Origin: Lacibacter sp.
GTDB lineage: Bacteria; Bacteroidota; Bacteroidia; Chitinophagales; Chitinophagaceae
NCBI RefSeq assembly: GCF_035299325.1
Contig: NZ_DATGWT010000041.1
Location: 28,709-92,708, forward strand
Direction: 5' to 3'
DNA: 64,000 nucleotides
Shown: piece by piece, positions 6,755 to 59,949 of the stretch
Numbering within the stretch: position 1 is the first letter of the stretch
How the letters are laid out: each line of letters starts with the position of its first letter
Notes under the pieces: model-generated
Databases searched by the model: none
Told to the model about the DNA's origin: nothing
What the model saw: the letters and a program-made list of their open reading frames with translations, nothing else
Made by a program: the position numbers and the translations under genes

Positions 6755-6775
6755 GAGCCTTTACTTAATATTGAA

Positions 6776-7273: not shown

Positions 7274-7276
7274 TCA

Positions 7277-8380: not shown

Positions 8381-8383
8381 TTT

Positions 8384-10834: not shown

Positions 10835-10839
10835 GTAAA

Positions 10840-13497: not shown

Positions 13498-13990
13498 ACA
13501 ATGCAGATGGTTAGGTAAAGTTGTTTTTGGAATTGCTATATTAGTACGTTAAACCTCAACCTCAAAACATTATCTTTTTTTTTATATATGTGTGTCGATT
13601 TTTTTTATAACTGTGTAGTTTAGCGTTAACTAGAATATTTTTTCTACATGGAAACACTTACTACTTCAATCATTGGTAAAATATTATTAGTTCTTTGCAC
13701 GGAATAAGTAGGTCGATATAACGGTTACGAACAAGTGTTGTTTTATATTTTCTGTTTATAATAGCTTCAGTCGCATCTGGAGCAGCAAGCCATATCATTT
13801 ACAAAGCCTGAGTCTGTTAATCTGGCTAACTCATGTTCCTCGTCATATTAAAACCAATGATCTTTCTTGTTGCACCCGCTGTTTGTTTTCTATTTACATA
13901 CCATCACGCTCTTTATCTATTTATGTCCATTCGTGGCCTATTCTTGGCTCGTCGCCCTTGTGCCCTGTTCTCCCCCTTGCCCTTTACCCT

Positions 13991-14619
13991 GTGTGTTACT
14001 ACAACAACTGCCGGGTCACCCGCTCAGAATACATCCGCCTCGTAGCCATCGAAAAAGAAATCAAAAACCTTCTTTTTCTAAATCGCCCCGTACAGAGCCG
14101 ATTCGATTATCGAGACTGGCCAGTCATTGTCTCAATCCAAAACGAAAAAAACATTGACATACAACTCATGCATTGGGAATACATAGCCGAATCAATACAC
14201 GATGCCGATGAATTAAAAGCAGCATGTAAAAATTTCACCTGGCTCAATGCCAAAGGCGAAAACATCCTGGTCAATGAAAAAGGAAGAGAATCGATGTACC
14301 GTGAAGGTGCACTGCATGGACGTGTATTGGCACTCTCCTCCGGTTTCTTCGAGTGGCGGCATACTCCCAAGATCGGCAAACGTGGGCAACCATTAAAAGA
14401 AACACAAAAGATTCCTTACTGTATAACCATTAATAACAGTGAAGAATACTTGTTATGGCAGCTGTATCCCTTATATAGCATAATCTGGAAATGGATCAGA
14501 AAGCATCCACATTCGCAATAGCAACAACAGATGCACTAGGCCCGATGGTGGAGATACACAATACAAAAAACGCCTATGTCTGCCCGGGGTCTGGCCTCTG
14601 CCGACCCCGGGATTTATAA
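13991..14619 (+). pseudogene. decayed SOS-response-associated peptidase (SRAP / YedK-like) gene
   Basis: A GTG at 13991 followed by TGT gives the (M)C N-terminus required for the SRAP catalytic Cys2. The GFFEWRH motif matches the SRAP GFYEW signature. The frame breaks near 14460-14490. The expected continuation (STFAIATTDALGPMVEIHNTKN, compare SFTIITT.AN..M..IHN) lies in another frame behind a TAG stop, and it runs into a palindromic element where the RMPVIL motif should be. Confidence 0.6.
14582..14611. repeat. REP-like palindromic element, copy 1 (gcccggggtctggcctctgccgaccccggg)
   Basis: The stem is CCGGGGTC/GACCCCGG around an 11-nt loop. A near-identical copy lies at 21107-21135. This copy sits between convergent gene ends. 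Confidence 0.7.
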
Positions 14620-14639
14620 ACACATTCTTGGTTCGCCTG

Positions 14640-15116
14640 CTATTTAATAACCTGCTGTTTAATTCCATTCGATATCATCAGCAACTGCACCGCCCTGTCC
14701 GCCGCCTTTGCTGATTGCACCGTGTGGTATAAAGGTTTTTCGTCGGCATAATACCAGTCTGCAGTTTTTTTCTTGTTGTTTTCAATAAAATATTCCTCAA
14801 TTTTTATCAACTTATTGTCTTCGTAGTAAAATGCATTTGAAGAGGTAATTTGTTTTGTTCCACCGTCAATTTTCATGGATCTGTTTACAAGATTTACGTA
14901 CTTCAATAATTTTCCCTCCTGAATAATCACCGTGGTAAAGGTGGTCATCTTAAAACCCATCTCAGGATCATTTTGCACTAATGTGTCTGCAAGTACCGGA
15001 AGGTTTGATGTGTTAATACGAAGTACAATAGAATCTATTTGCCTGCTTTTTAAAGGAGGTTGCGTATAGGCAGTACAAAAGAAAAAGAAAAAAATAATGC
15101 TAAGTGTCGTCCTCAT
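14640..15116 (-). CDS. secreted protein, unknown function
   Basis: It has a signal peptide (LSIIFFFFFCTAYTQ) and an intact 158-aa ORF. Confidence 0.5.
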   Translation of the reverse strand: MRTTLSIIFFFFFCTAYTQPPLKSRQIDSIVLRINTSNLPVLADTLVQNDPEMGFKMTTFTTVIIQEGKLLKYVNLVNRSMKIDGGTKQITSSNAFYYEDNKLIKIEEYFIENNKKKTADWYYADEKPLYHTVQSAKAADRAVQLLMISNGIKQQVIK

Positions 15117-15194
15117 GATTGTAGTGGCAGTTTAAAGTGGCTCATAAATTTCATGTCTGAGTGAACGTTTCATGCATGCTGACAAGCCTCTTCA

Positions 15195-15713
15195 TTACGC
15201 TTGCTGTAATGCTCTTTCCAATACGTTCAGGTTTTTAATATACGCTGTTGAATGTTCCCATTCCTCGGAGAGTTCAGCCCATAGCTTTTGCCTGTCTATT
15301 GCAAGTTGAATGATCGGTTTGTTTTGCTGATCAATAATCCCTTCATCAACCAGTTGGGCAAAACCTGTTGCAATAACAGAATTGTCTAGCGTATAAATAT
15401 ATTGCAGGTCATCAAAATCATCGTCCTGTATCTGGGTCTTTATCAAACTCCTGTCTGTTATCTTTGGGTTGTAGTCAGCAAACGCCATCTCTCCCACACT
15501 TTCAATCACCCATTGCAAACAATCCAGCGTTGCTGTTTGCGGGTTTTCTTTTCGCCAGTCTCTGTATTCTGCTAAAGCCATGTCTCCTTCGTCTGAACCA
15601 AAGGGAGCAAGCTCGTCAATACAACTCCAAAAAAAATCTTCAGGGATAAGTTCAGTAGCTCTTGGGTGAGCATGTTCAATATCGATCCCGTATTTTTCTT
15701 CTTGTTCTCCCAT
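15195..15713 (-). CDS. acidic cytoplasmic protein, unknown function
   Basis: The 172-aa ORF has no signal peptide and is strongly acidic (Asp/Glu-rich). I could not assign a family. Confidence 0.5.
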   Translation of the reverse strand: MGEQEEKYGIDIEHAHPRATELIPEDFFWSCIDELAPFGSDEGDMALAEYRDWRKENPQTATLDCLQWVIESVGEMAFADYNPKITDRSLIKTQIQDDDFDDLQYIYTLDNSVIATGFAQLVDEGIIDQQNKPIIQLAIDRQKLWAELSEEWEHSTAYIKNLNVLERALQQA

Positions 15714-15764
15714 AATCGTTTGTCGCTTTATTTTGTTTTAGTGAACGTATTTATAACCTTTCAA

Positions 15765-16334
15765 TCACGCAGTAGAAAGCAGCAACACGCCACCTATAAT
15801 TGATATGATAGACAAAACAATTACTAATACATCACTTACCCTGAAATACGTTCTCATTTCCTTTGAGAAAAGCAATACAACCGACAATAATGAGAATCCC
15901 AAAAACAAAATGACCCGCCACAGCATTACGCCATTCTGAAAAATATCCCGTGTAATAAACTCCTCGTAAAAAATATAAGAAAATAATAACGATACAACAA
16001 CGTAGTAAAACACATTCACGATCCAGCCAATCTTTTTGTGGGCTAAATGAAAGAGCATCCCAATTACCGGCAAACCCACCAACATTAAAAAGAAATCCCA
16101 ACTGGTTCTTCTCATGCGGCCACCATCCACATCATACAACAGGTCAAAACTTAAACATAAAATGAATAGCAACGACGATACCGTAAATGCTTTATACATC
16201 CACCCCCTTTCAGCCTTCACGTCTAAAAGTCCTTCCAGTATATATTCATCATTTTTTTCTTCCATGTCTAAGCAGTTCAGATAAAGGGAAGATAAATTAT
16301 CTCCCGGTAACTGGTAAATGTTTGAAATAGTCAA
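15765..16334 (-). CDS. integral membrane protein, unknown function
   Basis: It has four to five hydrophobic helices after a roughly 45-aa soluble N-terminus. It overlaps the upstream ORF by 4 nt (16331-16334). Confidence 0.5.
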   Translation of the reverse strand: MTISNIYQLPGDNLSSLYLNCLDMEEKNDEYILEGLLDVKAERGWMYKAFTVSSLLFILCLSFDLLYDVDGGRMRRTSWDFFLMLVGLPVIGMLFHLAHKKIGWIVNVFYYVVVSLLFSYIFYEEFITRDIFQNGVMLWRVILFLGFSLLSVVLLFSKEMRTYFRVSDVLVIVLSIISIIGGVLLLSTA

Positions 16335-16804
16335 CTCGTGTACGTTCTGGTCATGCCAATCAATGTCCGTACGCCATAAATCATAACCATCGATGCCTTT
16401 CCCGTTTCAATGAAATAGTTTAATTCATCGCCACTTTCTGATCTGACACATCCAAACGTATAAATTATCTCTTTATTAACTTTAAAGTCTCCATACTGTT
16501 TATCTATAGCCCCTTGAATATTTAAAACACTTAACAGACCGTTCTGTTTTGTTATAAGTCTTCTTGTTGTCAATATACTGAAGTTATCCTGGTCAATAAC
16601 GGTGGAACAAATATAGAGTTCGCTTTCTACTAGGTTAATTTCAAGGCCCGAATAGGGAAACTCTGAATTGGACTCATAAAACTTTGTCCACTTAAAGTTG
16701 TAAGGCTTCATTGTACTTCGCTTGATAGAAGCAATACAAATAGCATGTATTGATTTGTCGGATTTCATCATTGTAACCACTTGTAGCTTAGATTCAATTT
16801 CCAA
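16331..16804 (-). CDS. hypothetical protein
   Basis: The 157-aa ORF overlaps the downstream membrane-protein gene by 4 nt, suggesting translational coupling. Confidence 0.45.
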   Translation of the reverse strand: MEIESKLQVVTMMKSDKSIHAICIASIKRSTMKPYNFKWTKFYESNSEFPYSGLEINLVESELYICSTVIDQDNFSILTTRRLITKQNGLLSVLNIQGAIDKQYGDFKVNKEIIYTFGCVRSESGDELNYFIETGKASMVMIYGVRTLIGMTRTYTS

Positions 16805-16816
16805 AATACATGGCTC

Positions 16817-17302
16817 CTATTTTAGTTTTCTGAATTTAAAGTTTTTGAATTCAATGTAGCAGATGGTATCTGTCTTCAGGCTGTCACGGTAGTTATAGTA
16901 ATATAAAGTATCATTAGTAGCGTTATTAACAGAATAAGATCTGTCCTCAAGGTTGAAAAAATCACTGCAGGTACCATTTTCACATTTGTAATATCCTTTC
17001 CAATGATCATTCACAATTAAAAACTCACGATCATTTTTTCGTAATAAACTAAAGAAAATAAGATGATCACTTGTTTTATAGCGCTTTCTGTACACAGTTC
17101 CATTTTGTTCCACCGAAACATCCATATTGTAAACGGGTTCCTGAAATGTTCCTAAACTTTCACTGCAACTGATCTTAATTGTAGGTTCTTTAGCATTTAA
17201 AGTAGAATATTTAAATGTGCCAACAGGATAATGCGTAAAAAAATAGTAGCATAACCCAACGCCTGAAACGATTATTATCAGGATAATTATTTTTTTATTC
17301 AT
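16817..17302 (-). CDS. membrane-anchored or secreted hypothetical protein
   Basis: It has an N-terminal hydrophobic anchor (KKIIILIIIVSGVGLCYYFF) and several Cys residues in the soluble part. Confidence 0.5.
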   Translation of the reverse strand: MNKKIIILIIIVSGVGLCYYFFTHYPVGTFKYSTLNAKEPTIKISCSESLGTFQEPVYNMDVSVEQNGTVYRKRYKTSDHLIFFSLLRKNDREFLIVNDHWKGYYKCENGTCSDFFNLEDRSYSVNNATNDTLYYYNYRDSLKTDTICYIEFKNFKFRKLK

Positions 17303-17353
17303 ACCTCAAAGAGAACTGTTTCTATTCGTATGCAATACTCAATATTTTAATCG

Positions 17354-17887
17354 TTATTTTCCATTCAATAAAACTAATTTGTCAAACGCAAGTACCGAAG
17401 CCGGTATTTGCGTTTCAGGCTTATTGTCAATAAAAGGATAAAGAATCTGAACAGAAATAAACTCTTTTTCGTTCCTTATAATATAATTTACCTGCTTCAT
17501 CAATCCCCATCTGTTAGTACGCATCATATAATCGGTTCTATGAGCAGGCATGGAATGAAAAACTGTGTCAAATTCCCGGAGCACCCTGTTTGCTTGGTTG
17601 GCATCTAACATCATCTTTCTGGCCCCCGCATAATATTGACTGTCTGAAACTGTTGTTTTAGGAACATCATCTGTTATTTTTATCGTGTAAGAAGTCCCGT
17701 CTGATACATCGATGACACCGCTTATAACTTGGTCCTTAGTATCGAGCGAGGGAAGTTGTTGCCAGGGGCTGTCTACAGAAAAAGATAACAACCGGTATTC
17801 ACTTTTCCAAATACCCTTCTTGTTATTAACTTGTGCGCATGCGGCGAAGCTTAGCAGTGTATAAATAAAAAATTGAAATCTAATCAT
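17354..17887 (-). CDS. secreted hypothetical protein
   Basis: It has a signal peptide (FFIYTLLSFAACAQ) and a 177-aa ORF. Confidence 0.5.
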   Translation of the reverse strand: MIRFQFFIYTLLSFAACAQVNNKKGIWKSEYRLLSFSVDSPWQQLPSLDTKDQVISGVIDVSDGTSYTIKITDDVPKTTVSDSQYYAGARKMMLDANQANRVLREFDTVFHSMPAHRTDYMMRTNRWGLMKQVNYIIRNEKEFISVQILYPFIDNKPETQIPASVLAFDKLVLLNGK

Positions 17888-17901
17888 TTCGTGCTAACGT
17901 T

Positions 17902-18084
17902 TTAAAAATTGTTACCATCTTTCAATATACCTTTCAGATCTATCTTCTCTAAATAAGGTTTCATCCTCTCTGCATTGGTACTCACAAAAGAATAAAACGC
18001 CCTGCGCACATTATACTTTTTGTGCCATTCTATCTTCTCCTCGTATTCATCGGAGTTTTTGAAATAGATAAAACGTATTCGCAA
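17902..18084 (-). pseudogene. 5'-truncated paralogue of the 83-aa gene at 21273-21524
   Basis: The residues ...EEKIEWHKKYNVRRAFYSFVSTNAERMKPYLEKIDL align with ...VEVEWHKEYNVRRAFYSFASTNAEKMKTYLDKIDI. DNA similarity is clear over about 17935-18032 versus 21290-21388. The N-terminal half is missing and the region is overlapped by the 3' end of the 220-aa gene. Confidence 0.6.
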
Positions 18085-18692
18085 ACAGCTTTGAAATTTG
18101 TATGCCGGTCACCGGCAGGCGACCATCTGTGAGCCCAGTGATACTTACCATCCTTAACTCCTTCCAGTATCCATTCTGCACCATCCAATCCGCCATCATA
18201 AATTTCAATCGGCATATTCCAAAAATCAGCTCTCGCTATGAGTGTGGTTAATGTGTCATATTGCACATGATTAACATGAAAAGTTGTATCCCAAAAAATT
18301 TGTCCGGGTTCATATCCTCCAGCCCCATCCGCCAATTTAGAAAAAAGTTTAATGGTTTCGCCATCTCTCTGCAATCTCACGGTTAGCGGGTGTTCAAAAC
18401 TTCGTAGCAAGGTAAAGCGGTAAATCTCATTATCTCCCTTGTAGTTATAGATCACTGGTTCATGTAATCCAAATAGCATGGTAGAATACCATCCCATTAC
18501 AAATTGATCCAACCTCCTTTTGTTCTCTTTTACTTGTTCTTTAGTATATGTGGGAAATGGGAAATAGCTAGTTGCCGAATCAACCGGAACAGCTAATGAA
18601 TCTATTATCCCGGGCAGGTTGGCTTTCTCTGGTCTTGGATTGCAGGAAAATAACAAAACAAGAAGTATGATGCTGGTCAGAAGTTGTTTCAT
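18030..18692 (-). CDS. lipoprotein, unknown function
   Basis: It has a signal peptide plus lipobox (IILLVLLFSCNPRP). Its 3' end runs into the truncated paralogue scar. Confidence 0.55.
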   Translation of the reverse strand: MKQLLTSIILLVLLFSCNPRPEKANLPGIIDSLAVPVDSATSYFPFPTYTKEQVKENKRRLDQFVMGWYSTMLFGLHEPVIYNYKGDNEIYRFTLLRSFEHPLTVRLQRDGETIKLFSKLADGAGGYEPGQIFWDTTFHVNHVQYDTLTTLIARADFWNMPIEIYDGGLDGAEWILEGVKDGKYHWAHRWSPAGDRHTNFKAVCEYVLSISKTPMNTRRR

Positions 18693-18816
18693 AGCTAGTT
18701 GCCCTCTTTTATTTTCTTTTGCACAATTTCATTTCTTCCGGCCTGTTAAATTGATAAAGTGTCAAGTAGCATTAAGATACTTCATTTTTCAGCTCTGTAT
18801 ACAACCCAATACTTTG

Positions 18817-19467
18817 TTACCGGCTCTGTTTCTTGAAATTGTAAACATTCATGTTGTATATCCCATACTGTATGGTTTTAAAACTATCCAGTTGAAAGTC
18901 TTTGAATAGTTCAATAACCTCATTCTTCGTCAGGTATCTTTTATTGCAAAATATATCAACCTGGTTTGCGTAACCGGGTTCTGCTTCAACAATCGTTAAA
19001 ATACCGTCGCTGCTGAGTATTCGCTTTAGTTCCGAAATCATTTTCTTCTGTTGAACAAATTCATGTACTGTTCTTCGGCATAAAACCCTGTTATAAGAAT
19101 CCGATGGCAAAGGAATTGAATCAATTTTACCGGCTATGAATTTATACCTGCCCGCCAGGTTTGGATATTTCTTACTGTTCTTAAATTTCTTTGTTACCTG
19201 TTTTTTTGTATTAACGGTCATGCAATTGGTGCCGCCTTTTGTGCAAAGCTTATAGTTCTCCAAGTCTTCGAGTATCAAATAAAGGTTTGGATAAGCCCGT
19301 GCAATTTCTCTTGAAAACGCACCATCCTGGCAACCAATATCCACCAGCGTGTCAACGTTTGCCAGTGCATATTCTTTTATCTCCAGCTGCATGGCCTGTT
19401 CATCATCGTTTTGTGTTGCTGCTCCTGAAAGAAAGAGTATAACAAAGAATAAAAAAAAGTTTCGCAT
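18817..19467 (-). CDS. class I SAM-dependent methyltransferase
   Basis: It has a motif I-like VDIGCQDG followed by an acidic LILEDL, then a typical Rossmann MTase order (..YNRVLCRRTVHEF.., GILTIVE). The true start may be the internal Met at MQLEIKEY. Confidence 0.6.
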   Translation of the reverse strand: MRNFFLFFVILFLSGAATQNDDEQAMQLEIKEYALANVDTLVDIGCQDGAFSREIARAYPNLYLILEDLENYKLCTKGGTNCMTVNTKKQVTKKFKNSKKYPNLAGRYKFIAGKIDSIPLPSDSYNRVLCRRTVHEFVQQKKMISELKRILSSDGILTIVEAEPGYANQVDIFCNKRYLTKNEVIELFKDFQLDSFKTIQYGIYNMNVYNFKKQSR

Positions 19468-20516: not shown

Positions 20517-20921
20517 TCATTTAAACTTTACATCTCTCCGTTCAAAATAAAGAATAAAAACACCCTCTACTCTAAATATAAGTTCCCGTTCAGTCAATTT
20601 CACGATCTCAGCTTTTGTATCATGCTGGCTTAGTATTCTCCCGTCAGCACTAATCCTGTATGTTCCACTGTCTTTGATTTCTATGCCTTTAGCTGTTTCT
20701 TTTTTTGAAACTACTGTTACCGAATCCAGAAAGGTTACCATTCCCCCCACCCCCTGTTCTTTCATAGCTACAGAATCATCAAATACCCGTAATAACTCCA
20801 TTTTCTTAAAGCTCCAGGTACCAATGATTAGTCGCTTATTACTTTCCTGGGCATGGCCTGAGTTAATGATTATGAAAAACATAAAAGCAGCAAGAATGGT
20901 TCTGCTGAAATATAAAACCAT
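20517..20921 (-). CDS. secreted lipocalin-like small protein
   Basis: It has a signal peptide (ILAAFMFFIIINSGHAQ). The motif IIGTWSFKKME resembles the GxW start of lipocalin-like domains. The start was chosen at the second Met. Confidence 0.4.
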   Translation of the reverse strand: MVLYFSRTILAAFMFFIIINSGHAQESNKRLIIGTWSFKKMELLRVFDDSVAMKEQGVGGMVTFLDSVTVVSKKETAKGIEIKDSGTYRISADGRILSQHDTKAEIVKLTERELIFRVEGVFILYFERRDVKFK

Positions 20922-21106
20922 TATACATTTTCGCCTCAGCATATGCAGCTCTTATTTGTTGGTTGTTATCAAATATAGTTTAATAAAAAAAATAAGCTTG
21001 CGCCAGATTCTCAAGCTGATTCATGGCCCACCAAAACAACAAAACAATTGTGCAGCAGGTTGCTGCACAATCGCTACTACTCTTCAATCCATATCATTTT
21101 ATATCA

Positions 21107-21135
21107 GCCCGGGGTCTGGCCTTAGCCGACCCCGG
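21107..21135. repeat. REP-like palindromic element, copy 2 (gcccggggtctggccttagccgaccccgg)
   Basis: It differs from copy 1 at 14582-14611 only in the loop. It is intergenic. Confidence 0.7.
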
Positions 21136-21194
21136 CGGTTAGAAATATATTCCATGACTTTTAACACCACAACTAACATTCATAGTCAGTCGAT

Positions 21195-21272: not shown

Positions 21273-21524
21273 CTACTTTATTGTTGAAATATCTATCTTA
21301 TCCAAATAAGTCTTCATCTTCTCTGCATTGGTACTCGCAAAAGAATAAAATGCCCTTCGCACATTATACTCCTTGTGCCATTCCACTTCCACATAAAAAG
21401 CATCGATCTGGTACAGCTTGTAACGGTTTACCTCATCAACCCGCTCAGCCACCAATGCACCATGCTCCCAAACAGCTTCCAGCTGTTCCAATTCATCCAG
21501 CCTGTTAAATTGATAGAGTGTCAT
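21273..21524 (-). CDS. small conserved hypothetical protein (83 aa)
   Basis: The ORF is intact, and a truncated paralogue lies at 17902-18084. Confidence 0.5.
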   Translation of the reverse strand: MTLYQFNRLDELEQLEAVWEHGALVAERVDEVNRYKLYQIDAFYVEVEWHKEYNVRRAFYSFASTNAEKMKTYLDKIDISTIK

Positions 21525-21774
21525 GGAGAGTTAAGATAATTCATTTTGAAATGCAACATTCGGCAGCAATGTTCTTACAACAATAATTGAAAAAATTTTG
21601 CAGGAGATAGCAACAGCAAGAATACTTTTTACACCTCCCGATTCCAACCCCTTTTCATAACATTTTTTTATTGGGTTCTTTTGATGATTGAATGTACTTT
21701 TTGTAGCTTTGCTGTGTATCCCTGTTATTCCGCTGTTCAGTTTTATAATGATTAAGATAGCAGGTTAATTTCTT

Positions 21775-22878: not shown

Positions 22879-24126
22879 ATGAGAAATTATCAGCCATTTA
22901 TTGCATCACTTAGAAAGTTAATTGAAGAATACCCTGGTAAAATCGAAAATCCATGGAAAAAATTGGCTATTAGCTCTGTAAATGGACTTGCGAGTAAGGA
23001 GCTTAGGAGTCTGGTATCTCTTGAAGAAAGGCGAGCAAGTGGAGCTTTTTTTACAGATACAGAATTAGGCTCTTCTGTGTTAAAATCGTATAATTTGAGT
23101 TTCGGAGAAAATGTAAATTTTTATGATCCCGCTTGTGGGGCTTCGAACTTATTGATTTCTGTAAAAAATCATTTCTCTGGTAAGTTGTCTAAGAAGAATA
23201 TATCATTGGAAGTATTTGGAACGGATATTCACAAGGAATTTATTGAAGCTTCAAAACTAAGATTAGAGATTTCAGACCTATTATTAAATTCAAGAAACAG
23301 CGACTACTCAAAAAAAATTTTAGTTGCAGATGGCTTAAAGTCAAATACGTTTTACCAAAATGCAACACACGTTATCACCAACCCTCCGTTTAACCAAATC
23401 GATTCCCCTTTTGATATTGACTGGGCATCTGGAAAGGTGTCAGCAGCGGCTTTATTTATTGATGTAATATCAAAAAATGTAAATCCCGGCACTGAAATAA
23501 TTGCAATCCTTCCTGACGTACTTAGAAGTGGTAGCCGATATGAAAAGTGGCGTGCACATATCAGCAATCATTGTGTAGTTACAGGTATTAAGCTTTTTGG
23601 GCAATTTGACAACTATGCAGATGTAGACGTTTTTTCAGTTTTTTTAAAGAAAAAGGAGCAGCCTTGTGAAGAGACAATTTCTCCTTGGATCACAACAACT
23701 ATTAATGAATCAAAGCTATCGGACCTATTTAATGTTAGTGTTGGGACGGTTGTAGACAATCGGGACCCACACAAAGGAATTAAAAGGCCTTATCTCATCA
23801 GTAAGGGCTTAGAAGGCTGGACCGAATGTAATTATACCGATTTGACACGAAAGCATAAAGGCAAAGCTATACAATCGCCTTTCGTTGTCATAAAACGTAC
23901 ATCAAGATTTGGCGATAACCATCGGGCAATTGCCACACTGGTTACTATTCCTGAACAGGTCTATGTAGATAATCATCTTATAGTACTTCAACCTAAAAAA
24001 GGGGGTATTGCAACCTGCAGAAGAATCTTGAAAATTTTAAAAACTAAATCTATTGATGATTGGATAGATTCACAAATCAGGTGTAGACACCTAACAGTAA
24101 AAGTTGTTTCAAACATTCCTCTATGA
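22879..24126 (+). CDS. gamma-class N6-adenine DNA methyltransferase (Eco57I/TaqI-like)
   Basis: Motif I FYDPACGASNLL (DPxCGxG) lies upstream of motif IV VITNPPFNQ (NPPF). The 415-aa protein has a C-terminal target-recognition-like region. The stop overlaps the next start (ATGA at 24123-24126). Confidence 0.85.
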   Translation: MRNYQPFIASLRKLIEEYPGKIENPWKKLAISSVNGLASKELRSLVSLEERRASGAFFTDTELGSSVLKSYNLSFGENVNFYDPACGASNLLISVKNHFSGKLSKKNISLEVFGTDIHKEFIEASKLRLEISDLLLNSRNSDYSKKILVADGLKSNTFYQNATHVITNPPFNQIDSPFDIDWASGKVSAAALFIDVISKNVNPGTEIIAILPDVLRSGSRYEKWRAHISNHCVVTGIKLFGQFDNYADVDVFSVFLKKKEQPCEETISPWITTTINESKLSDLFNVSVGTVVDNRDPHKGIKRPYLISKGLEGWTECNYTDLTRKHKGKAIQSPFVVIKRTSRFGDNHRAIATLVTIPEQVYVDNHLIVLQPKKGGIATCRRILKILKTKSIDDWIDSQIRCRHLTVKVVSNIPL

Positions 24127-26225
24127 GCACAAGTGCGTTCCAAAATGCTAGTATTCGTTTTTCAACTCAGATAATAAAGCGTCTGGGCGAAGAACTCAAT
24201 CCAAGTATCGATCAAAGTATTCTTGAATTAGTAAAAAACTCTTATGATGCCGATGCGACTACCTGTACAGTGACTTTAAGTAATGTTAGTGCAGAAGGTG
24301 GTACCGTAACAATAGAAGATGATGGTGATGGTATGGATGGGAGTGCAATTAAGAATAGTTATTTGGTATTGGGGCAATCTGAAAAATCCTTTTCAAAGCG
24401 AACTAGATTAAACAGGATACCCGCAGGTAGTAAAGGTTTAGGAAGACTAGCAGCACTCCGTATGGGAACAGCAGTGGAATTAGAATCGGTACCTTTAAAA
24501 GTTAGCAATAAATTAAATAAAACCAAACAGAAATTTGCTATTAAAATTGACTGGAATAAATTTGATAGTGCCAAACTTGTCGATGATGTTATTATACGGA
24601 TAAACAGCTCAAAAGTATCACCAAGTAAATCTTCTAGCACAACTGTATCCATAAAACATCTAAAAAACAAAGTAACAGAAAGAGACATTAAAAAAGTTGC
24701 AAGAGGTTTGATTTTACTTGCAGACCCCTTTGATGACGACCCAGATGCTTTTAAACCAGTTTTAAAGGCGCCAGAGTTTAAAGAGCTGGAAAAACTTGTT
24801 ACAAAAAGATATTTCGACGATGCAGATTATCACTTATCTGCAGTATTAGACAAAGATGGAAATGCATCAGCGGAAATTTTGGATTATAAAGGCAAAGTAC
24901 TTTTCAAGGCAACGCACAAGGAAATTACAGTAAAGCGAAAAAATAAAAAGTATAATTGCCCTGTTACTACTTTTGATCTGTGGGCCTTTATTTTAAATAG
25001 CACCTCTTTTTCAACAAGATCAACATCATTGGGAGAAGTTAAAGAATGGCTAAATGAATTTGGAGGTGTTCATGTTTACGAGAATGGGTTAAGAGTTAAT
25101 CCTTATGGCAATCAAGGAAATGATTGGCTTGACATGAACTTATCACGTGCCAGAAGCCCTGAAGAGAGGCCTTCAACCAACACTTCAATAGGAGTAACGA
25201 GAATTAGGGACTCCAAAGGGTTATTGAAGCAAAAAACTGATAGGTCTGGGTTTATTGAAGATGACGTATTTCATGAAATAAAAAATTTTTGTCAAGACGC
25301 TTTAGAGTGGATGGCAAAAAAAAGACTTGAGATCGCTGAGAAGAAACGAGCTAAAAGCCGTGAACAAACAGCTTCAGAATCCACTAATTCTAAGGAGAAA
25401 GTAAAGGAACAGATTAATAAGCTACGAACAAACGACAGAGTTCAACTTGTAAAAGCTTTTGAATCATATGACAAGGCAGTTCAGAGCCAAGTAAATACAT
25501 TAAAAGCCGAGGTACAACTATATAGAACACTTAGTACTGCTGGTATTACTGCTGCTACATTTTCCCATGAGTCAAATGGTAATCCTATTAAAGTTATAAA
25601 ACTTAATATCGATGCAATTGAAAGGCGATCTAAAAAATTTTTGGTGGGGAGGCTTGAAGAAAACCAACTATCCAAACCGATAGGTCTTATTCGGCGTGCA
25701 ATTAACTCATTAGCTGTCTTAGGAACTGCAACATTAAAATTACTTTCCAATGAGAAAAGGCGAATTACACGAGTCGAAGTACATGATATAATTAAAAATA
25801 CTCTTGAAACATTTACTCCATTTTTAAATGGCAGAGACATCAAACTGAGAACGGAACTAGCGAAAGGAACGCCGTATCTTAGAGGAAGCGAAGCTGCACT
25901 AGAATCAATTTTTACAAACTTACTTAACAATAGCCTGGTCGCAATTGAAAATGCTAATCCATCAGAACGTGCGATGCTTATTAAAACAGAAATTCAGGAA
26001 GATGTTTTGGTGCTGACCGTTTCTGACAATGGTACAGGAATCGAAGGTATTGCCTTAAAAGACATCTGGTTACCAGGGCAGACTACTAATCCAAACGGCA
26101 CGGGTCTGGGTTTGACTATAGTTCGGGATGCTGTTATGGATTTAGGGGGCTCGGTAAGAGCAAATCGTCATGGCGTACTTGGAGGAGCGGATTTAATTGT
26201 TGAACTACCTATAATCGGAAAATAA
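24123..26225 (+). CDS. dual GHKL protein: N-terminal MORC/Hsp90-like ATPase module, coiled coil, and C-terminal histidine-kinase core
   Basis: The N-terminal Bergerat fold shows ELVKNSYDADAT (N-box), IEDDGDGMDG (G1) and GSKGLGRLA (G2). A Lys/Glu-rich coiled coil follows (KKRLEIAEKKRAKSREQ...). The kinase core shows an H-box-like TAATFSHESNGNP, N-box IFTNLLNNSLVAI, G1 VSDNGTGIEG and G2 GTGLGLTIV. No TM segment is present. Confidence 0.8.
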   Translation: MSTSAFQNASIRFSTQIIKRLGEELNPSIDQSILELVKNSYDADATTCTVTLSNVSAEGGTVTIEDDGDGMDGSAIKNSYLVLGQSEKSFSKRTRLNRIPAGSKGLGRLAALRMGTAVELESVPLKVSNKLNKTKQKFAIKIDWNKFDSAKLVDDVIIRINSSKVSPSKSSSTTVSIKHLKNKVTERDIKKVARGLILLADPFDDDPDAFKPVLKAPEFKELEKLVTKRYFDDADYHLSAVLDKDGNASAEILDYKGKVLFKATHKEITVKRKNKKYNCPVTTFDLWAFILNSTSFSTRSTSLGEVKEWLNEFGGVHVYENGLRVNPYGNQGNDWLDMNLSRARSPEERPSTNTSIGVTRIRDSKGLLKQKTDRSGFIEDDVFHEIKNFCQDALEWMAKKRLEIAEKKRAKSREQTASESTNSKEKVKEQINKLRTNDRVQLVKAFESYDKAVQSQVNTLKAEVQLYRTLSTAGITAATFSHESNGNPIKVIKLNIDAIERRSKKFLVGRLEENQLSKPIGLIRRAINSLAVLGTATLKLLSNEKRRITRVEVHDIIKNTLETFTPFLNGRDIKLRTELAKGTPYLRGSEAALESIFTNLLNNSLVAIENANPSERAMLIKTEIQEDVLVLTVSDNGTGIEGIALKDIWLPGQTTNPNGTGLGLTIVRDAVMDLGGSVRANRHGVLGGADLIVELPIIGK

Positions 26226-26226
26226 A

Positions 26227-26907
26227 ATGTCAGTTGTATTATTAGATAGAGAAATCAATAAAATTCACGTCATTGATGATGATACAGATAGTCGTGAAAG
26301 CTATGGTCTAACCGTAGAAGAGATTGAAGTAGAAACCGTGTTGCAAAATGACCGTGTTGATAACATAGAAACTTTTTTACTGACAATTGGTAATCAAGAT
26401 GCCGTTGTATCGGATCATCATTTAAAGAAGAGCTCGAGTTATTTTCCAATGAACGGCGCAAATTTTATATCTAAATGTTATGATAGACACATCCCGTCTG
26501 TTCTTGTAACAAAATATGAAATGGCATCTTATCATGAAATAAGACCCTTTAAAAGAAATATTCCAGTAGTATTAACTCCTGAACAATTCAACCCTGACAC
26601 ACTTGTTAAAGCTTTAGAGTTATGTGTCGCCGAATTCAAAGGTAATCTTTCACAAACACGTAAAACATGGAAGACTTTGGTTCGTTTTGATGATGTTATA
26701 AGAGACGATGCTGGCAATAAAACGGTAGCGATGGCTATACTTCCTTCTTGGAACAGAAACATGGTTATTAATTTAAAGATGTTAGAACTTCCCCATGAAA
26801 TTCAAGAAATATCGGAACCAGATTTGCGCCTTTATGCGCAGGTAAATATAGATGCAGAAGATCCTTATGAATTATATTTTCAAAACTGGGAAATCATTAA
26901 AAAATGA
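26227..26907 (+). CDS. REC (receiver)-like protein with uncharacterised C-terminal domain
   Basis: The receiver-like pattern is KIHVIDDD (acidic pocket after beta1), DAVVSDHHL (candidate phospho-acceptor Asp after beta3) and PSVLVTKY (Thr after beta4). The roughly 90-aa C-terminal region has no motif I recognise. The start is 1 nt after the upstream stop, and the stop overlaps the next start (ATGA at 26904-26907). Confidence 0.6.
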   Translation: MSVVLLDREINKIHVIDDDTDSRESYGLTVEEIEVETVLQNDRVDNIETFLLTIGNQDAVVSDHHLKKSSSYFPMNGANFISKCYDRHIPSVLVTKYEMASYHEIRPFKRNIPVVLTPEQFNPDTLVKALELCVAEFKGNLSQTRKTWKTLVRFDDVIRDDAGNKTVAMAILPSWNRNMVINLKMLELPHEIQEISEPDLRLYAQVNIDAEDPYELYFQNWEIIKK

Positions 26908-27881
26908 GTCGGGATATTTCAATAATTGATGTAGGGCATGGTAATGCCACTGTGATACATGATAATAGTGAAACTATAGTAATAGATTGTGGTTCTCATG
27001 GGGCAGGGCTGTTACAGTTTTTACAAGACAGAAATATTACCGAGATTAAAAGAGTATACCTTTCCCACGCTGATCAAGACCACATCGGGGGTCTGCTGAG
27101 CCTTCTTTCAAGTGATGAAATTAGCGTACGTGAAGTATATCTTAATTCAGATGGCTCAAAAGCCAGTAAACTTTGGAACGACTTAATCACTATACTTCAT
27201 GACAAGAGTCGTACTCAAAAAATCACTTTTGAAGTTTCAATTCATGACGAATTGCCTCCTATTAATGCAGGAAGTATTTCCATAACACCAATGGGTCCTT
27301 CAAAATATCTAGTAGGAAAAGGAGTTGGGAATACTGACAGGAAAAATAGGAAAATAACATCCAATTCAATTTCCTCTTCCTTTCTTGTTATTTATCAAGA
27401 TGTACCCTTGGTCTTTCTTAGCGGGGACATTGATCAAATAAGCTTAGATGAAATCACTTATAACGGGAAAACAATAAAGGCTGCTTCACTTGTTTTCCCC
27501 CACCATGGTGGAAAAATCGAAGAGGGAAATGTTGTTAATTTTACAAACGAACTTATTGCTGCAACCCAACCATCAACGGTTGTTTTTTCTATAGGCAGAC
27601 GAAGGTTTTCCAACCCAAGGCCAGAAGTAATAAATGCTGTAAAGAAAAGTAAGGTAAAAACAAGAATTGCTTGCACTCAGTTATCAGAACATTGTTGCGC
27701 TGATTTGCCTAAAGAAAATTCTGCTCATTTACATGCATATTATGCAAAGGGCAAACATCTTAAAGAATGTTGCGGAGGGACATATGTTCTCAATCTTGAT
27801 AACGCAATAACAGAATTTCCCATTTCACAAGATCATCAAGCCTTTATTACAGCCTCAGCAACCACAGCACTGTGCAGATAG
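26904..27881 (+). CDS. ComEC-type metallo-beta-lactamase-fold hydrolase (putative nuclease) with C-terminal Cys cluster
   Basis: IIDVGHGNATVIH...IVIDCG and YLSHADQDHIGGL (HxHxDH-type metal site in the ComEC/Rec2 C-terminal style) are followed by a later FPHHGG. The C-terminal Cys cluster is CTQLSEHCCADL...LKECCGG. Confidence 0.75.
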   Translation: MSRDISIIDVGHGNATVIHDNSETIVIDCGSHGAGLLQFLQDRNITEIKRVYLSHADQDHIGGLLSLLSSDEISVREVYLNSDGSKASKLWNDLITILHDKSRTQKITFEVSIHDELPPINAGSISITPMGPSKYLVGKGVGNTDRKNRKITSNSISSSFLVIYQDVPLVFLSGDIDQISLDEITYNGKTIKAASLVFPHHGGKIEEGNVVNFTNELIAATQPSTVVFSIGRRRFSNPRPEVINAVKKSKVKTRIACTQLSEHCCADLPKENSAHLHAYYAKGKHLKECCGGTYVLNLDNAITEFPISQDHQAFITASATTALCR

Positions 27882-27888
27882 GGTAATT

Positions 27889-28080
27889 TCATTTAGAAGA
27901 CTTCTCCCATTTCTTGCTTACAAATAGTTGCTGTTTTATTGATTTAAAAGTTTCCAAAAGGGCTTGATTTAATGCATTAATTTCTGCTTCAGCATATTCT
28001 TCATATTGTTTCGTATCAATTATTTCCTTTACAATTTCTTTATAAGCATCATATATCGGTTTACGTTCTGGATAAGCCAT
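27889..28080 (-). CDS. small helical hypothetical protein (63 aa)
   Basis: The short Lys/Glu-rich ORF is convergent with the four-gene operon and ends 8 nt from its stop. The coding status is uncertain. Confidence 0.3.
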   Translation of the reverse strand: MAYPERKPIYDAYKEIVKEIIDTKQYEEYAEAEINALNQALLETFKSIKQQLFVSKKWEKSSK

Positions 28081-28198: not shown

Positions 28199-28744
28199 TC
28201 AACTCCTTTTCCCAGTAGTCAGGCCCTTGAAGTCAGCATTTTTTGGAAGAGGGCCATTATAAAAAAACAAATCAATTAAACTCACCTTAAGTCCTTCAGC
28301 AATTTTTATAATATTGAAAAGTTCCATGTTGTGTTCACCGTTGATAAATCTACTTAAATCAGCAGCATCAATATTAGATATAACAGCTAAATCGTCTTGT
28401 TTTGTAGAACGCCATTGTATTAAATCCAGCAATCGCTTTCCAAATTTTTCCTTTTCTGTTTTAATCCGACGTTCTAAATCATACTTCTTTGATAGCTTTC
28501 TAAAGCGCATCCCATTTTCATAATCAAAAAGAGCAGCAAGCGTCACATTGAGTCCGTTACCAATTTTTATTAATGTATTAAACTCAAAATTTGATGCCCC
28601 CTTTTCAATTAAACTAACTTGAGATTGTGTAAGCAAAATCAATTGCCCGAGTTGTGCCTGGCTTAATTCATCGTCCTTACGTAGTTGTTTAACACGTAAT
28701 CCAAATAATTTCGCTTCTCTTGAAAATCTGGCTTCGACTGTCAT
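28199..28744 (-). CDS. transcriptional regulator with two tandem XRE-type HTH domains
   Basis: The first HTH is LRVKQLRKDDELSQAQLGQLILLTQSQVSLIEKGASNFEFNTLIKIGNGLNVTLAALF. The second is GKRLLDLIQWRSTKQDDLAVISNIDAADLSRFINGEHNMELFNIIKIAEGLKVSLIDLF. Confidence 0.7.
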   Translation of the reverse strand: MTVEARFSREAKLFGLRVKQLRKDDELSQAQLGQLILLTQSQVSLIEKGASNFEFNTLIKIGNGLNVTLAALFDYENGMRFRKLSKKYDLERRIKTEKEKFGKRLLDLIQWRSTKQDDLAVISNIDAADLSRFINGEHNMELFNIIKIAEGLKVSLIDLFFYNGPLPKNADFKGLTTGKRS

Positions 28745-35096: not shown

Positions 35097-35130
35097 AAAC
35101 TAAAATTTAAAAATGATCGCCTACTCTGTT

Positions 35131-35580
35131 TCAGGTTTTCGGCATACCCTGCCTACGTAGAAAGTTGAGAAGTTCATATAACTGAAATCTTCCAATAGCA
35201 ATAAGATTAATAACAAAAAACCCAGCATTAAAAAACAAGTGTTCCTTCCAGCTCATCTTGTTCAGCACACCACCACAGCTGCAGGGCAAATCAGCAACAA
35301 ACAAAACCATATACAATAAATACAGGGTAAACAATACAAGCAATAAAAGCGAAGCATATAAACCTGCTTTTCTTGTCAGTTCAAAAAACAGGAGCAGCAC
35401 AACAATCAACTCGGTTGCTGGCAACAACCATGCAATCGTGTCTGCTCCCTGGTCAATAAGAGGAGACCTTCTTAAATGAGCTTTAAAAACTTCATAGTTT
35501 ATAAGCTTGCTGATAGCTGTATAGCAATAAAGTAAAATCAACAAATTGCCGATAATTACTCTATGGTGAACAATTTTCAT
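35131..35580 (-). CDS. MauE/DoxX-like redox-associated membrane protein
   Basis: It has four hydrophobic helices and the Cys motif DLPCSCGG between helices, as seen in MauE-family proteins. Confidence 0.5.
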   Translation of the reverse strand: MKIVHHRVIIGNLLILLYCYTAISKLINYEVFKAHLRRSPLIDQGADTIAWLLPATELIVVLLLFFELTRKAGLYASLLLLVLFTLYLLYMVLFVADLPCSCGGVLNKMSWKEHLFFNAGFFVINLIAIGRFQLYELLNFLRRQGMPKT

Positions 35581-36122: not shown

Positions 36123-36773
36123 TCAGGGCTTAAAATAACCATGCCTTATGGCAAAGATCACCACGCCTATAATATTCACTGAACCTGTTTTTTCAATAAT
36201 CCTTGTTCTTGTTTTTTCAACCGTGCTGATCGTAAGCTTAGTCCGGTCTGCAATCTCCTTTGTAGCATACTGCTCACACAATAGCTTCATAACAGTTAGC
36301 TCAGTTTCTGAAAACTCAATTGCTTCCTTTCTCTGTCCCGCCTTTGTTGCAGCAATCATTTTACTGAGTTGCGTACTCGTCTGCTCACAGAAATATGTGC
36401 CCCCATCCTTTGCCGACTGAATGGCAGTCAGCAACTCCTCCTTCTTACTGCTCTTTAACAGGTAACCATTCGCTCCCGCATCCATCATATCAACAAGAAG
36501 ATGCTCTTCATCAAACATCGTCAGTGCAAGAATACCAACCTTGGGTCTTTGCTGCTTAACAATCTTGGTTACAGCTATCCCGTTTTTTAAAGGCATGGCA
36601 ATATCAGTGATCACAACATCCGGTTCCACTTCATCAATCAATTGTAAAAGTGCGTCGCCATCAGCGGCTTCGCCGGCAATCACAATGCTCTTTTCTTTTT
36701 TCAACACCAGTAAAATACCTTCCCTGAAAAGCGAATGATCATCGGCCAGCACAATTTTTATAGGTTCACTCAT
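36123..36773 (-). CDS. NarL/LuxR-family response regulator
   Basis: The REC domain shows IVLADDHSLFREGI, VVITDIAMP and ILALTMF. The C-terminal LuxR HTH shows LTVMKLLCEQYATKEIADRTKLTISTVEKTRTRIIEK. Confidence 0.85.
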   Translation of the reverse strand: MSEPIKIVLADDHSLFREGILLVLKKEKSIVIAGEAADGDALLQLIDEVEPDVVITDIAMPLKNGIAVTKIVKQQRPKVGILALTMFDEEHLLVDMMDAGANGYLLKSSKKEELLTAIQSAKDGGTYFCEQTSTQLSKMIAATKAGQRKEAIEFSETELTVMKLLCEQYATKEIADRTKLTISTVEKTRTRIIEKTGSVNIIGVVIFAIRHGYFKP

Positions 36774-37518
36774 AACGTTGATTTATAGGTAATGCAAAAT
36801 ATATCTCTGTCCCTTTATTCTTTCCGCAACCCACTTCCATTACTCCGTTTAACACACTCGCCCTGCTCCTCATATTTTTTATCCCCGTTCCATCTGCATG
36901 TTTATTCTTGGCCAATCCAATGCCGTCATCAGTATAAAACAAATGAATGATTCCCTTCCGTTCAAGAATCCGCAATTCAACTGTCATCGCTTTCGAATGT
37001 TTAATGGCATTATGCAATAACTCCTGCACCAACCGGTAAATATGTAGGCCTAATTCCTTATCAGGTTCCTGCTTTAATTTATAGGTTAGCAAAAACTGAA
37101 TGTCACATGCTGTTCTGCATTTACTCAGGAACTGTTCAATGGCTGGTTGCAGCCCCTTATCGTTTAATACAGCCGATGCTAACCCGTTGGCCGTATCTCG
37201 AAAACGTCTGGTTAACTCCTGCATCGATTCTTCTGCTTTTGCAAGGTATTCACGCTCTTCTTCATTCGCACCTCTGCAATTTCTGATCAGCAGGTGTGCA
37301 ACCGAAACCAGTGGCCCTAAATCATCATGCAGGTCTCTTGCAATCCTCGAACGGTCATTTTCCAGTATTCTCGATTCTTGTAAATAATACCGCCGCAAAA
37401 GATCAAAATGTCTTCGGTGTTTGCGGATCATGCTCACCGCAAAATACAGGAACAATGCCCCGATCACTATACTGCCAATGAGGAACGCAGTATATATTCT
37501 CGTTTCAGTGGTATCCAT
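36766..37518 (-). CDS. sensor histidine kinase (HisKA_3 / NarX-DesK type)
   Basis: It has one TM helix, the H-box IARDLHDDLGPLV, the N-box LLHNAIKHS, then DDGIGL and GTGIKNM. It overlaps the response-regulator gene by 8 nt. Confidence 0.8.
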   Translation of the reverse strand: MDTTETRIYTAFLIGSIVIGALFLYFAVSMIRKHRRHFDLLRRYYLQESRILENDRSRIARDLHDDLGPLVSVAHLLIRNCRGANEEEREYLAKAEESMQELTRRFRDTANGLASAVLNDKGLQPAIEQFLSKCRTACDIQFLLTYKLKQEPDKELGLHIYRLVQELLHNAIKHSKAMTVELRILERKGIIHLFYTDDGIGLAKNKHADGTGIKNMRSRASVLNGVMEVGCGKNKGTEIYFALPINQRYE

Positions 37519-59712: not shown

Positions 59713-59949
59713 TGGTTTAAGTGGTAACGATCAATGTTTCTGATAAGCACTGTTTGGAAACTTTCGAATAGAGAGAGATCGGCAGGTTGCAGTATTAACG
59801 AAGCATCATTTGTGGGCGTATATGTCAATTGTTAAATTCATGCGAAGAGAAAGCGCTTCAATTTATATCTGTCTACTTATTTATTCAGATGCCATGTGAA
59901 CAATTCAACAGAAACAAATTTGCAACTGCACAGCTGCTCCCCTACTTTT

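Follow-up and report, generated by a model that had tools for sequence, protein, structure and literature searches.

The stretch of DNA considered here, referred to as the window, comprises 64,000 nucleotides of a Lacibacter sp. genome (Chitinophagaceae, Bacteroidota; contig NZ_DATGWT010000041.1, positions 28,709 to 92,708) and carries on its forward strand, between 22879 and 27881, a compact cassette of four genes encoding a predicted DNA methyltransferase, a histidine kinase with two GHKL ATPase modules, a receiver-like protein and a metallo-beta-lactamase (MBL) hydrolase. The same genes recur together in distant bacterial lineages, and three of the four proteins have homologues in Ambrosia, a phage-blocking system of Pseudomonas aeruginosa. 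The genes and their domains are as follows.

22879-24126, + strand: gene 1, 415 aa by open reading frame (ORF) call, gamma-class N6-adenine DNA methyltransferase, homologue of AbrA of Ambrosia (Pfam, PADLOC, BLASTP)
24123-26225, + strand: gene 2, 700 aa (ORF call), dual-GHKL kinase
24123-24707, + strand: gene 2 aa 1-195, MORC/MutL-type GHKL ATPase, HATPase_c_3 (hidden Markov model (HMM) and PDB profiles)
24708-25502, + strand: gene 2 aa 196-460, middle domain followed by a charged helical linker (alignment columns)
25503-26225, + strand: gene 2 aa 461-700, histidine-kinase core with dimerisation and histidine phosphotransfer (DHp) and catalytic and ATP-binding (CA) parts (HMM, PDB profiles)
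26227-26907, + strand: gene 3, 226 aa (ORF call)
26227-26646, + strand: gene 3 aa 1-140, receiver (REC) domain (AlphaFold model, Foldseek, hhalign)
26659-26907, + strand: gene 3 aa 145-226, output domain, a five-stranded barrel like the oligonucleotide/oligosaccharide-binding (OB) fold (domain model, fold search)
26904-27881, + strand: gene 4, 325 aa (ORF call)
26904-27656, + strand: gene 4 aa 1-251, ComEC-type MBL-fold hydrolase, predicted DNase (HMM, PDB profiles)
27657-27881, + strand: gene 4 aa 252-325, family-specific C-terminal extension rich in Cys and His (alignment A5)

The four reading frames are packed end to end, genes 1 and 2 sharing an ATGA at 24123-24126 (ctATGAgc), genes 3 and 4 another at 26904-26907 (aaATGAgt), and a single nucleotide separating the stop of gene 2 from the start of gene 3 (TAA-a-ATG, 26223-26229). 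The original prediction, made from the letters of the window, had described four co-directional frames with these overlaps and this gap, had given each product an identity from short motifs, and had reported neither a membrane segment in gene 2 nor PD-(D/E)xK or HNH motifs. Coordinates and junction letters agree with that description and every quoted motif lies where it was placed; the highest Kyte-Doolittle value in 19-residue windows over all four proteins is 1.32, leaving no membrane segment, and no HNH or PD-(D/E)xK family of Pfam, NCBIfam or PADLOC scores on any of the proteins. The identities themselves also stand: a gamma-class N6-methyladenine (m6A) methyltransferase by motif order and HMM score, a MORC-type ATPase with a complete kinase core by two ATPase families and invariant boxes, a ComEC-style MBL site with a Cys cluster by HMM and ComEC matches and invariant residues, and a receiver-like protein by model fold and a conserved acidic pocket, though with no HMM match. 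The cassette lies in a low-GC stretch (GC 0.35-0.37; 0.40-0.45 in the surrounding DNA). Neither direct nor inverted repeats were found to bracket 22879-27881, no tRNA genes were found in the window, and a scan for sigma-70 promoters and terminators, whose consensus is unsuited to Bacteroidota, returned sites no more numerous than in shuffled sequence.

In the gene 1 protein, DPACGAS (motif I, aa 83) stands ahead of NPPF (motif IV, aa 168), which is the gamma-class order, and the target-recognition region is C-terminal. The protein scores 6e-13 on Pfam N6_Mtase and about 1e-13 on PADLOC MTase_II/mad2. The gene 2 protein carries HATPase_c_3 at aa 30-150 (1.7e-19) and HATPase_c at aa 589-696 (5.8e-20), both in Pfam; PDB profile searches match its N-terminus to MORC3 and MutL and aa 454-689 to ZraS (8e-17), the DHp and CA region (aa 454-696) scores 5e-22 with AtoS/ZraS-type kinases, and kinases of AtoS/ZraS/FixL type align over aa 450-698. 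Pfam HisKA gives no score on gene 2. The motif FSHES begins at aa 480, with H482 encoded at 25566-25568, and in alignment A4 of the family the H-box reads TAATF(S/A)HES with H482-E483 invariant. The same alignment shows the first Bergerat fold to be invariant at E35, N39, D66xGxG and G102xKGLGR and the second ATP site to be complete and equally invariant at N599, N603, D635xGxG and G659TGLGL. The middle domain lying between them has dense invariant columns in A4 (FGGVHxYxNGLRVxPYGNxGNDWL ... QKTDRSGF), is matched by no family HMM, and would form the transducer or clamp part of a MORC/MutL-like module.

Gene 3 has no match in Pfam, NCBIfam or PADLOC. The NarL-type receiver encoded elsewhere in the window scores 8e-25 on Pfam Response_reg, a model on which gene 3 scores nothing. 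An AlphaFold (AF2) model built from 22 homologues reached a predicted local distance difference test (pLDDT) value of 92, and aa 1-140 resemble the receiver domains of 3jte, CheY, DctD and PorX with template modelling (TM) scores of 0.6-0.73, normalised to the target (Foldseek). The motifs VIDDD (aa 15), VVSD (aa 60) and LVT (aa 93) include D17-D18, D63 (codon 26413-26415) and T95, all of them conserved in the gene 3 family of about 1,100 clusters at 50% identity. The C-terminal domain, which modelled alone reaches a pLDDT of 88, forms a barrel in the order b1-b2-b3-helix-b4-b5, in which R145, W175 and N207 are invariant and aromatic residues are conserved. A fold search of this barrel against the PDB gave no significant match (best E 0.2); many of the top fold matches are OB domains, namely CspA, the YBX1 cold-shock domain, eIF5A, Teb1, SSB and a ligase OB domain, at TM 0.5-0.6.

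Gene 4 scores 1.5e-11 on Pfam Lactamase_B and carries SHADQDH at aa 54. In profile searches of the PDB the MBL domains of ComEC/Rec2 come first (3e-15 to 1e-14), followed by Pce/CbpE and Apyc1, and the ComEC alignment consists of two blocks (aa 7-72 and 152-250); an additional segment of about 40 aa lies between them. Invariant in alignment A5 are D9, H12, S54, H55-x-D57-x-D59-H60, D83, D175/D177 and H200-H201. PADLOC models of LmuA-MBL (6e-11), RTasMBL (7e-9), PDC-M48B and Avs1a also match, all of them only over aa 4-96. Past the end of the ComEC alignment lies a conserved Cys/His cluster (C257, C264, C289/C290, H311 and C324), and this extension is probably a metal-binding module. The MBL domain of ComEC is a metal-dependent DNase according to Silale et al. 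2021, as that work is cited in PMC12799240. The NCBI record name, which makes gene 4 a ComEC/Rec2 competence protein, was rejected: on TIGR00361 ComEC it scores 2e-13 and 49 bits against a cut-off of 190, with only the MBL portion aligned, and the protein has 325 aa and no membrane domain.

The products of genes 2-4 are 100% identical to database proteins of Lacibacter sp., and the genes travel together far beyond this genus. A pattern scan for gene 2 through 185,579 species genomes found relatives in 123, of which 80 loci were retrieved, and full-length relatives at 45-75% identity occur in very distant lineages. At least 15 phyla are represented, among them Bacteroidota, Latescibacterota, Gemmatimonadota, Spirochaetota, Planctomycetota, Acidobacteriota, Chloroflexota, Actinomycetota, Verrucomicrobiota, Armatimonadota, Myxococcota, Cyanobacteriota and several proteobacterial classes. 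The four-gene synteny that had been proposed for checking in other genomes is present there: kinase, gene 3 homologue and gene 4 homologue follow one another, collinear and abutting, at every locus with enough contig (78/78), and an orthologue of gene 1 lies directly upstream on the same strand at about 70 of 79 loci and upstream but divergent at two more. Because the arrangement recurs in all 78 usable loci of unrelated genomes, it is far beyond chance. Four exceptions have a different DNA methylase instead, in Caldilinea (L023) an M.Eco57I-type enzyme right after the MBL gene, in a member of the Kofleriaceae (L063) an N6_N4_Mtase fused to Mrr_cat, and in Kocuria (L066) and Micromonospora (L002) an Eco57I-type enzyme; the substitution of unrelated methylases for gene 1 in these loci speaks for a functional need for DNA methylation. 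In one spirochaete the place of the methylase is taken by an SNF2/ResIII helicase, and one Longimicrobiaceae locus has no adjacent methylase. The four proteins also co-diverge, their identities to the window copies correlating at r = 0.65-0.83, with the kinase the most conserved (median 52% to the window copy) and the receiver the least (31%).

Carriage on plasmids is seen as well. A conjugative Burkholderia megaplasmid bears all four genes beside an integrase, ParDE and a DEAD-box helicase, and a Hymenobacter plasmid bears all four beside patatin and ThiF genes. The copy on a plasmid of Pseudanabaena sp. ABRG5-3 (L090, NZ_AP017563.1, 6010-10786) lacks a methylase gene, and an IS982 transposase interrupts its MBL gene, a single case that is consistent with the nuclease being harmful when the methylase is absent; the 464-aa gene upstream of this copy was considered as a methylase and ruled out. 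A phage collection yielded a single weak and partial match, to gene 2 at 25% identity on a 5.5-kb contig without annotation, and gives no indication that phages carry the cassette. These observations support the view that the four genes are a single functional unit, conserved and horizontally mobile.

Some observations on relatives and neighbours stand beside this distribution. Clustering of the 402 flanking ORFs at the 79 loci into 381 clusters revealed no other conserved neighbour, the only recurrent one being an SNF2/ResIII helicase of about 1,100 aa that adjoins the cassette in four unrelated genomes (L029, at 4555-8007, L045, L046 and L083); that of L029 takes the place of the methylase and overlaps the start of the kinase gene. 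A metagenome-assembled genome of the Rhodothermales (L043, 81-5058, - strand) has a second, paralogous dual-GHKL kinase of 706 aa with the H-box FHEVERG, flanked by proteins of 479 and 429 aa without informative Pfam matches, and this locus may be another effector variant of the superfamily. On the Stenotrophomonas rhizophila plasmid CP031730.1 (L089, 4736-8115), a gene annotated as 'GHKL domain-containing protein' and distantly related to gene 2 (23% identity) comes immediately after a C5 cytosine methyltransferase, which is the arrangement of a 2021 study of HEF_HK kinases (PMC8011034).

The closest precedent is Ambrosia, an anti-phage system validated in P. aeruginosa and described in a September 2025 preprint (bioRxiv 10.1101/2025.09.30.679545). 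It consists of AbrR (XRE), AbrA (N6 methylase), AbrB (kinase/HSP90-like ATPase), AbrC (REC and a proposed winged helix-turn-helix (wHTH)) and AbrD (HNH); every one of these proteins is needed, and defence is lost when their predicted functional domains are mutated, as in AbrB N40A and AbrC D60A, D60 being the predicted phospho-acceptor (10.1101/2025.09.30.679545). Comparison with the Abr sequences of Table S1 of the preprint, in which AbrB is an N-terminal fragment of 399 aa, shows that gene 1 is 34% identical to AbrA over 373 aa (BLASTP, E 2e-58), the alignment reaching into the C-terminal region, and that gene 2 is 27% identical to the AbrB fragment over 385 aa (E 2e-32; gene 2 aa 20-379, thus taking in the middle domain up to the point where the fragment stops). 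The gene 3 family profile aligns with AbrC over aa 12-100, the receiver half, with 93.6% probability and E 2e-7 (hhalign), and its C-terminal domain gives no hhalign alignment with the AbrC C-terminus. Both systems thus bring together in one cluster an N6-adenine methylase, a HATPase_c_3/HATPase_c kinase, a small receiver protein and a nuclease, with gene 1 homologous to AbrA, gene 2 to AbrB and the REC half of gene 3 to AbrC, and the two mutated residues, AbrB N40 and AbrC D60, have conserved counterparts in gene 2 N39 and gene 3 D63.

The differences are equally clear. The effector here is a ComEC-type MBL hydrolase of 325 aa, unrelated to the HNH endonuclease AbrD (213 aa); an OB-like barrel serves as the receiver output in place of the helical or wHTH C-terminus of AbrC; no XRE gene comparable to the HipB-like AbrR is conserved with the cassette; and the family spans at least 15 phyla, whereas Ambrosia has been reported in Gammaproteobacteria only (10.1101/2025.09.30.679545). 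Kinase identities of at least 45% inside the family against 27% to AbrB mark it as a distinct family, and by sequence comparison the cassette of the window is a sister of Ambrosia with a swapped effector, a different receiver output domain and no conserved XRE. An XRE gene does stand beside the window copy:

28199-28744, - strand: tandem helix-turn-helix (HTH) XRE protein, 181 aa, convergent with gene 4 (HTH_3, 2e-14)

Two stretches of this protein match 'Control_protein' models of restriction-modification (R-M) systems (1e-14 and 3e-12). As a fifth component after the fashion of AbrR it was rejected, relatives lying near the cassette in L047 only, of 79 loci, and it may be a local regulator. 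A 63-aa ORF without matches (27889-28080, - strand) follows it.

The original prediction had offered the four-gene composition as a candidate novelty, and this does not survive the homology of three of its four proteins to AbrA, AbrB and AbrC. Its expectation that no named system would match holds in so far as no PADLOC 2.0 or NCBIfam model names the cassette, and fails in that Ambrosia is homologous. The link between a dual-GHKL kinase/receiver pair and R-M genes had a precedent in 2021, when Bellieny-Rabelo et al. (PMC8011034) described kinases composed of HATPase_c_3, a DHp-like HEF_HK region and HATPase_c, 91.6% of which are linked to the divergent receiver Response_reg_2. Such pairs are enriched beside R-M genes, mainly C5 methylases, HNH_2 and Vsr, and a paraMORC descent was proposed for the kinases; MBL or Lactamase_B proteins are not mentioned in that study (PMC8011034). 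The kinase architecture, the adjacent divergent receiver and the methylase immediately upstream are common to these pairs and the cassette, whereas the methylase is N6-adenine here and predominantly C5-cytosine there, and the beta5 lysine kept in Response_reg_2 is not kept in the gene 3 family. Membership of HEF_HK/Response_reg_2 was rejected: PF19191 (HEF_HK) gave no match at E <= 10 on gene 2 or its aa 401-600 fragment, the presence of this model in the library copy being unconfirmed, and PF19192 (Response_reg_2) gave none on gene 3 at the same threshold, nor was there a match for AbrC or for the paralogous kinase of L043.

The effector has its own set of relatives. In Hachiman, AVAST, Lamassu, DRT and Canu, the ComEC-like MBL is a latent DNase that a partner protease activates (PMC12799240). 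HamM of Hachiman, Avs1a, the Lamassu and DRT MBLs and CanC (Science 2025, PMC12799240) share with gene 4 the form of a ComEC-like MBL encoded as a separate gene next to a sensor or activator and, relative to ComEC, the presence of extra segments, their likeness to gene 4 being limited to about 90 N-terminal residues. They differ in that the partner is a protease there and a kinase/receiver pair here, so activation, if the enzyme is gated at all, would follow a different chemistry. No protease domain was found in genes 1-3 (Pfam), and no trypsin-like or caspase-like protease is a conserved neighbour at the 79 loci. Detocs, said to have been described by Rousset et al. in 2023, reportedly comprises a kinase (DtcA), a buffer receiver (DtcB) and an effector in which a receiver is joined to a purine nucleoside phosphorylase (PNP) domain (DtcC), a cytoplasmic His-Asp phosphorelay leading to ATP depletion. 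A dedicated cytoplasmic phosphorelay with a receiver upstream of the effector activity is common to both, as an analogy only; Detocs has no methylase, MORC-like module or MBL, and its effector is fused to the receiver and does not cut DNA. Genes 1-4 match no Detocs-named model in PADLOC 2.0, a release whose Detocs content is unchecked, and no PNP domain in Pfam.

Further candidates arise from the methylase and the first ATPase module. The first 190 or so residues of gene 2 match the BbrUII/HgiDII restriction-enzyme family NF050001 (1e-17, 64 bits against a cut-off of 550), and its N-terminus also scores on PADLOC REase_II (8e-9). Like the cassette, this family and other Type II R-M systems with a paraMORC pair a GHKL module with a methylase; they differ in having a nuclease domain of their own and no kinase core, receiver or MBL partner. 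Membership of BREX-like systems or of classical Type II restriction endonucleases (REases) was rejected, the similarity being to generic methylase and GHKL domains and far under family cut-offs. MADS was likewise rejected, the NCBIfam MAD2 score being 18.5 bits (cut-off 720) and genes 2-4 matching neither mad1 nor any of mad3-8; the PADLOC mad2 match of gene 1 reflects the generic methylase domain only.

Taken together, we consider it probable that the cassette is a mobile, self-contained four-gene conflict module of the Ambrosia kind, directed against phages or plasmids, in which an R-M-like methylase/nuclease pair is placed under a dedicated His-Asp phosphorelay. A role in defence is very plausible because of the homology to a validated system, the carriage on plasmids, the defence-gene neighbours and the non-orthologous replacement of the methylase, and a methylation-linked, phosphorelay-gated DNase is the most likely mechanism that we infer. 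Both GHKL modules, the H-box, the acidic pocket of the receiver and the metal site of the MBL have invariant catalytic residues. The gene 1 methylase, whose motifs are present, would modify host DNA at adenine and thereby mark it as self. The 700-aa protein of gene 2 would dimerise, its MORC/MutL-type GHKL and middle domains working as a DNA clamp or sensor, powered by ATP, that detects a cue of infection or DNA that is foreign or unmodified. Sensing would drive autophosphorylation of H482 by the C-terminal kinase core, which has the motifs for this chemistry, and the phosphoryl group could then pass to D63 in the acidic pocket of the gene 3 receiver. The phosphorylated receiver, through its OB-like barrel, may recruit or un-gate the gene 4 nuclease, a homologue of DNases, and so lead to degradation of DNA.

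Post-translational control of the nuclease is favoured over purely transcriptional control because the output domain is an OB-like barrel and not a wHTH and the genes overlap or abut co-directionally, and further because the cassette has no conserved regulator and related MBL nucleases are kept in a latent state. The most specific form of the proposal, in which a MORC-type clamp kinase reads DNA methylation or foreignness into a His-Asp signal and a receiver/OB adaptor un-gates a latent ComEC-like DNase post-translationally, the whole constituting a new R-M-like class of immunity, is advanced tentatively, as a possibility that we would not expect to hold in every part.

Several points weigh against the probable reading. 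In canonical receivers phosphorylation is coupled to output by the beta5 lysine, a position that is variable in the gene 3 family and is T117 here. The OB-like character of the C-terminal domain is a trend among fold matches that are not themselves significant, and the MBL fold also houses hydrolases that are not nucleases, such as the phosphocholine esterase Pce/CbpE and the phosphodiesterase Apyc1. Two sets of loci, L005/L012 and L029, seemingly have no adjacent methylase, and their triad looks intact. Some immediate neighbours at other loci match PADLOC models for Type II/IIG REase, SIR2, HmaC, HEC-01 and PDC-S02, a count that comes with no background comparison. In Ambrosia itself, reporters are induced upon infection, and phage propagated in an AbrA-expressing host stays sensitive to the system (10.1101/2025.09.30.679545); given this induction and the non-protective methylation, self-marking and post-translational licensing are not to be assumed. 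For the cassette, defence, methylation, phosphotransfer and nuclease activity are all predictions from sequence.

The strongest rival draws on these last points and supposes transcriptional control in the manner of Ambrosia: the receiver would be phosphorylated upon infection and would then activate the operon or a promoter close by, and the nuclease would be constitutively active once made, possibly on DNA modified by the cassette's own methylase. It is the model proposed by the Ambrosia authors, whose reporters are induced on infection and whose AbrA methylation does not protect, an OB-like barrel could in principle bind nucleic acid, and a gene resembling R-M C-proteins adjoins the window copy. 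The gene 3 protein, however, has no HTH or wHTH and an output domain unlike that of AbrC, its gene lies in the middle of the block of overlapping or abutting genes that it would regulate, and neither XRE nor any other regulator is conserved with the cassette, so that we regard this explanation as unlikely, if worth keeping in view.

More doubtful still is an ATP-dependent restriction enzyme without a working phosphorelay, an R-M-like complex of the dual-GHKL protein and the MBL in which the paraMORC module is a DNA clamp, the receiver a pseudo-receiver serving as a scaffold or DNA-binding subunit, and the kinase chemistry vestigial. The matches of the gene 2 N-terminus to the BbrUII/HgiDII family and PADLOC REase_II and the lack of the canonical beta5 lysine would suit such an enzyme, and paraMORCs are classically tied to R-M systems, as PMC8011034 reports in citing Iyer et al. 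2008. A vestigial kinase is nonetheless difficult to reconcile with H482-E483, the N and G boxes and D17/D18/D63/T95 being invariant or nearly so across phyla, and AbrC D60A loses defence in Ambrosia. Least likely, and in our estimation improbable, is a role outside immunity, either as a selfish addiction module or as an epigenetic or stress-signalling unit whose MBL hydrolyses a small molecule or RNA, for although R-M-like modules can act as post-segregational killers, plasmid copies of the cassette lie next to toxin-antitoxin genes, the Apyc1 phosphodiesterase and Pce esterase share the MBL fold as weaker PDB matches and many gene 4 homologues carry the precomputed Pfam annotation Anti-Pycsar_Apyc1, the best and specific similarity of gene 4 is to ComEC nuclease domains and defence-associated MBL DNases, a phage-blocking system contains homologues of three of the four proteins, and a DNA methylase is retained or replaced at cassette loci.

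With the phosphorelay-controlled methylase/nuclease pair as the favoured reading, the four-gene system is real, conserved and probably defensive, but with precedent. Ambrosia is an R-M-like pair under a private two-component system, of which the cassette represents a far wider sister family, extending to at least 15 phyla and to plasmids, and comparison of the two separates a core of methylase, dual-GHKL kinase and receiver from exchangeable parts, namely the effector, the receiver output domain and the XRE protein. The cassette also provides a direct test of whether the same type of latent MBL DNase can be gated by phosphorylation rather than by a protease. If so, phosphorylation would stand in place of the proteolytic activation of the Hachiman, AVAST and Canu MBL nucleases, and the cassette would be the first two-component phosphorelay directly licensing a nuclease. 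Database names such as 'ComEC/Rec2 family competence protein' and 'sensor histidine kinase' hide this probable immune module.

Around the cassette, the low-GC stretch continues upstream, where eight small ORFs of 141-220 aa (14640-18692 and 20517-20942, - strand; local GC 0.35-0.37) have no Pfam matches and no mutual similarity, several of them with hydrophobic or lipoprotein-like N-termini. Three pairs of direct repeats lie in the same stretch, at 17938-18030 and 21291-21383 (93 nt, 89%), at 18727-18788 and 21486-21547 (62 nt, 84%), and at 14575-14627 and 21100-21152 (53 nt, 81%), the last being a GC-rich hairpin (CCCGGGGTC...GACCCCGG); they may be duplicated cassette boundaries or elements like repetitive extragenic palindromes (REP). 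Within the stretch lies a small class I S-adenosylmethionine-dependent methyltransferase (Methyltransf_11; 18817-19467, - strand), and at the stretch a protein with an SOS-response-associated peptidase (SRAP) domain (13883-14521, + strand). Immediately ahead of the low-GC stretch, a 13-kb operon of five tightly packed co-directional ORFs (116-13497, - strand; 2212, 165, 367, 816 and 885 aa) gave no Pfam match at E <= 0.001 and no PADLOC match at E <= 0.01. After the cassette, SusC/SusD genes follow at about 30 kb, a DUF805b RNA motif (35118-35152, - strand; 41 bits) adjoins a MauE-family gene, a NarL-type two-component pair occupies 36123-37518 (- strand; HisKA_3/HATPase_c kinase and Response_reg plus GerE regulator), and a cobalamin riboswitch (59943-60207, + strand; 87 bits) lies upstream of the ORF at 60139-62160.

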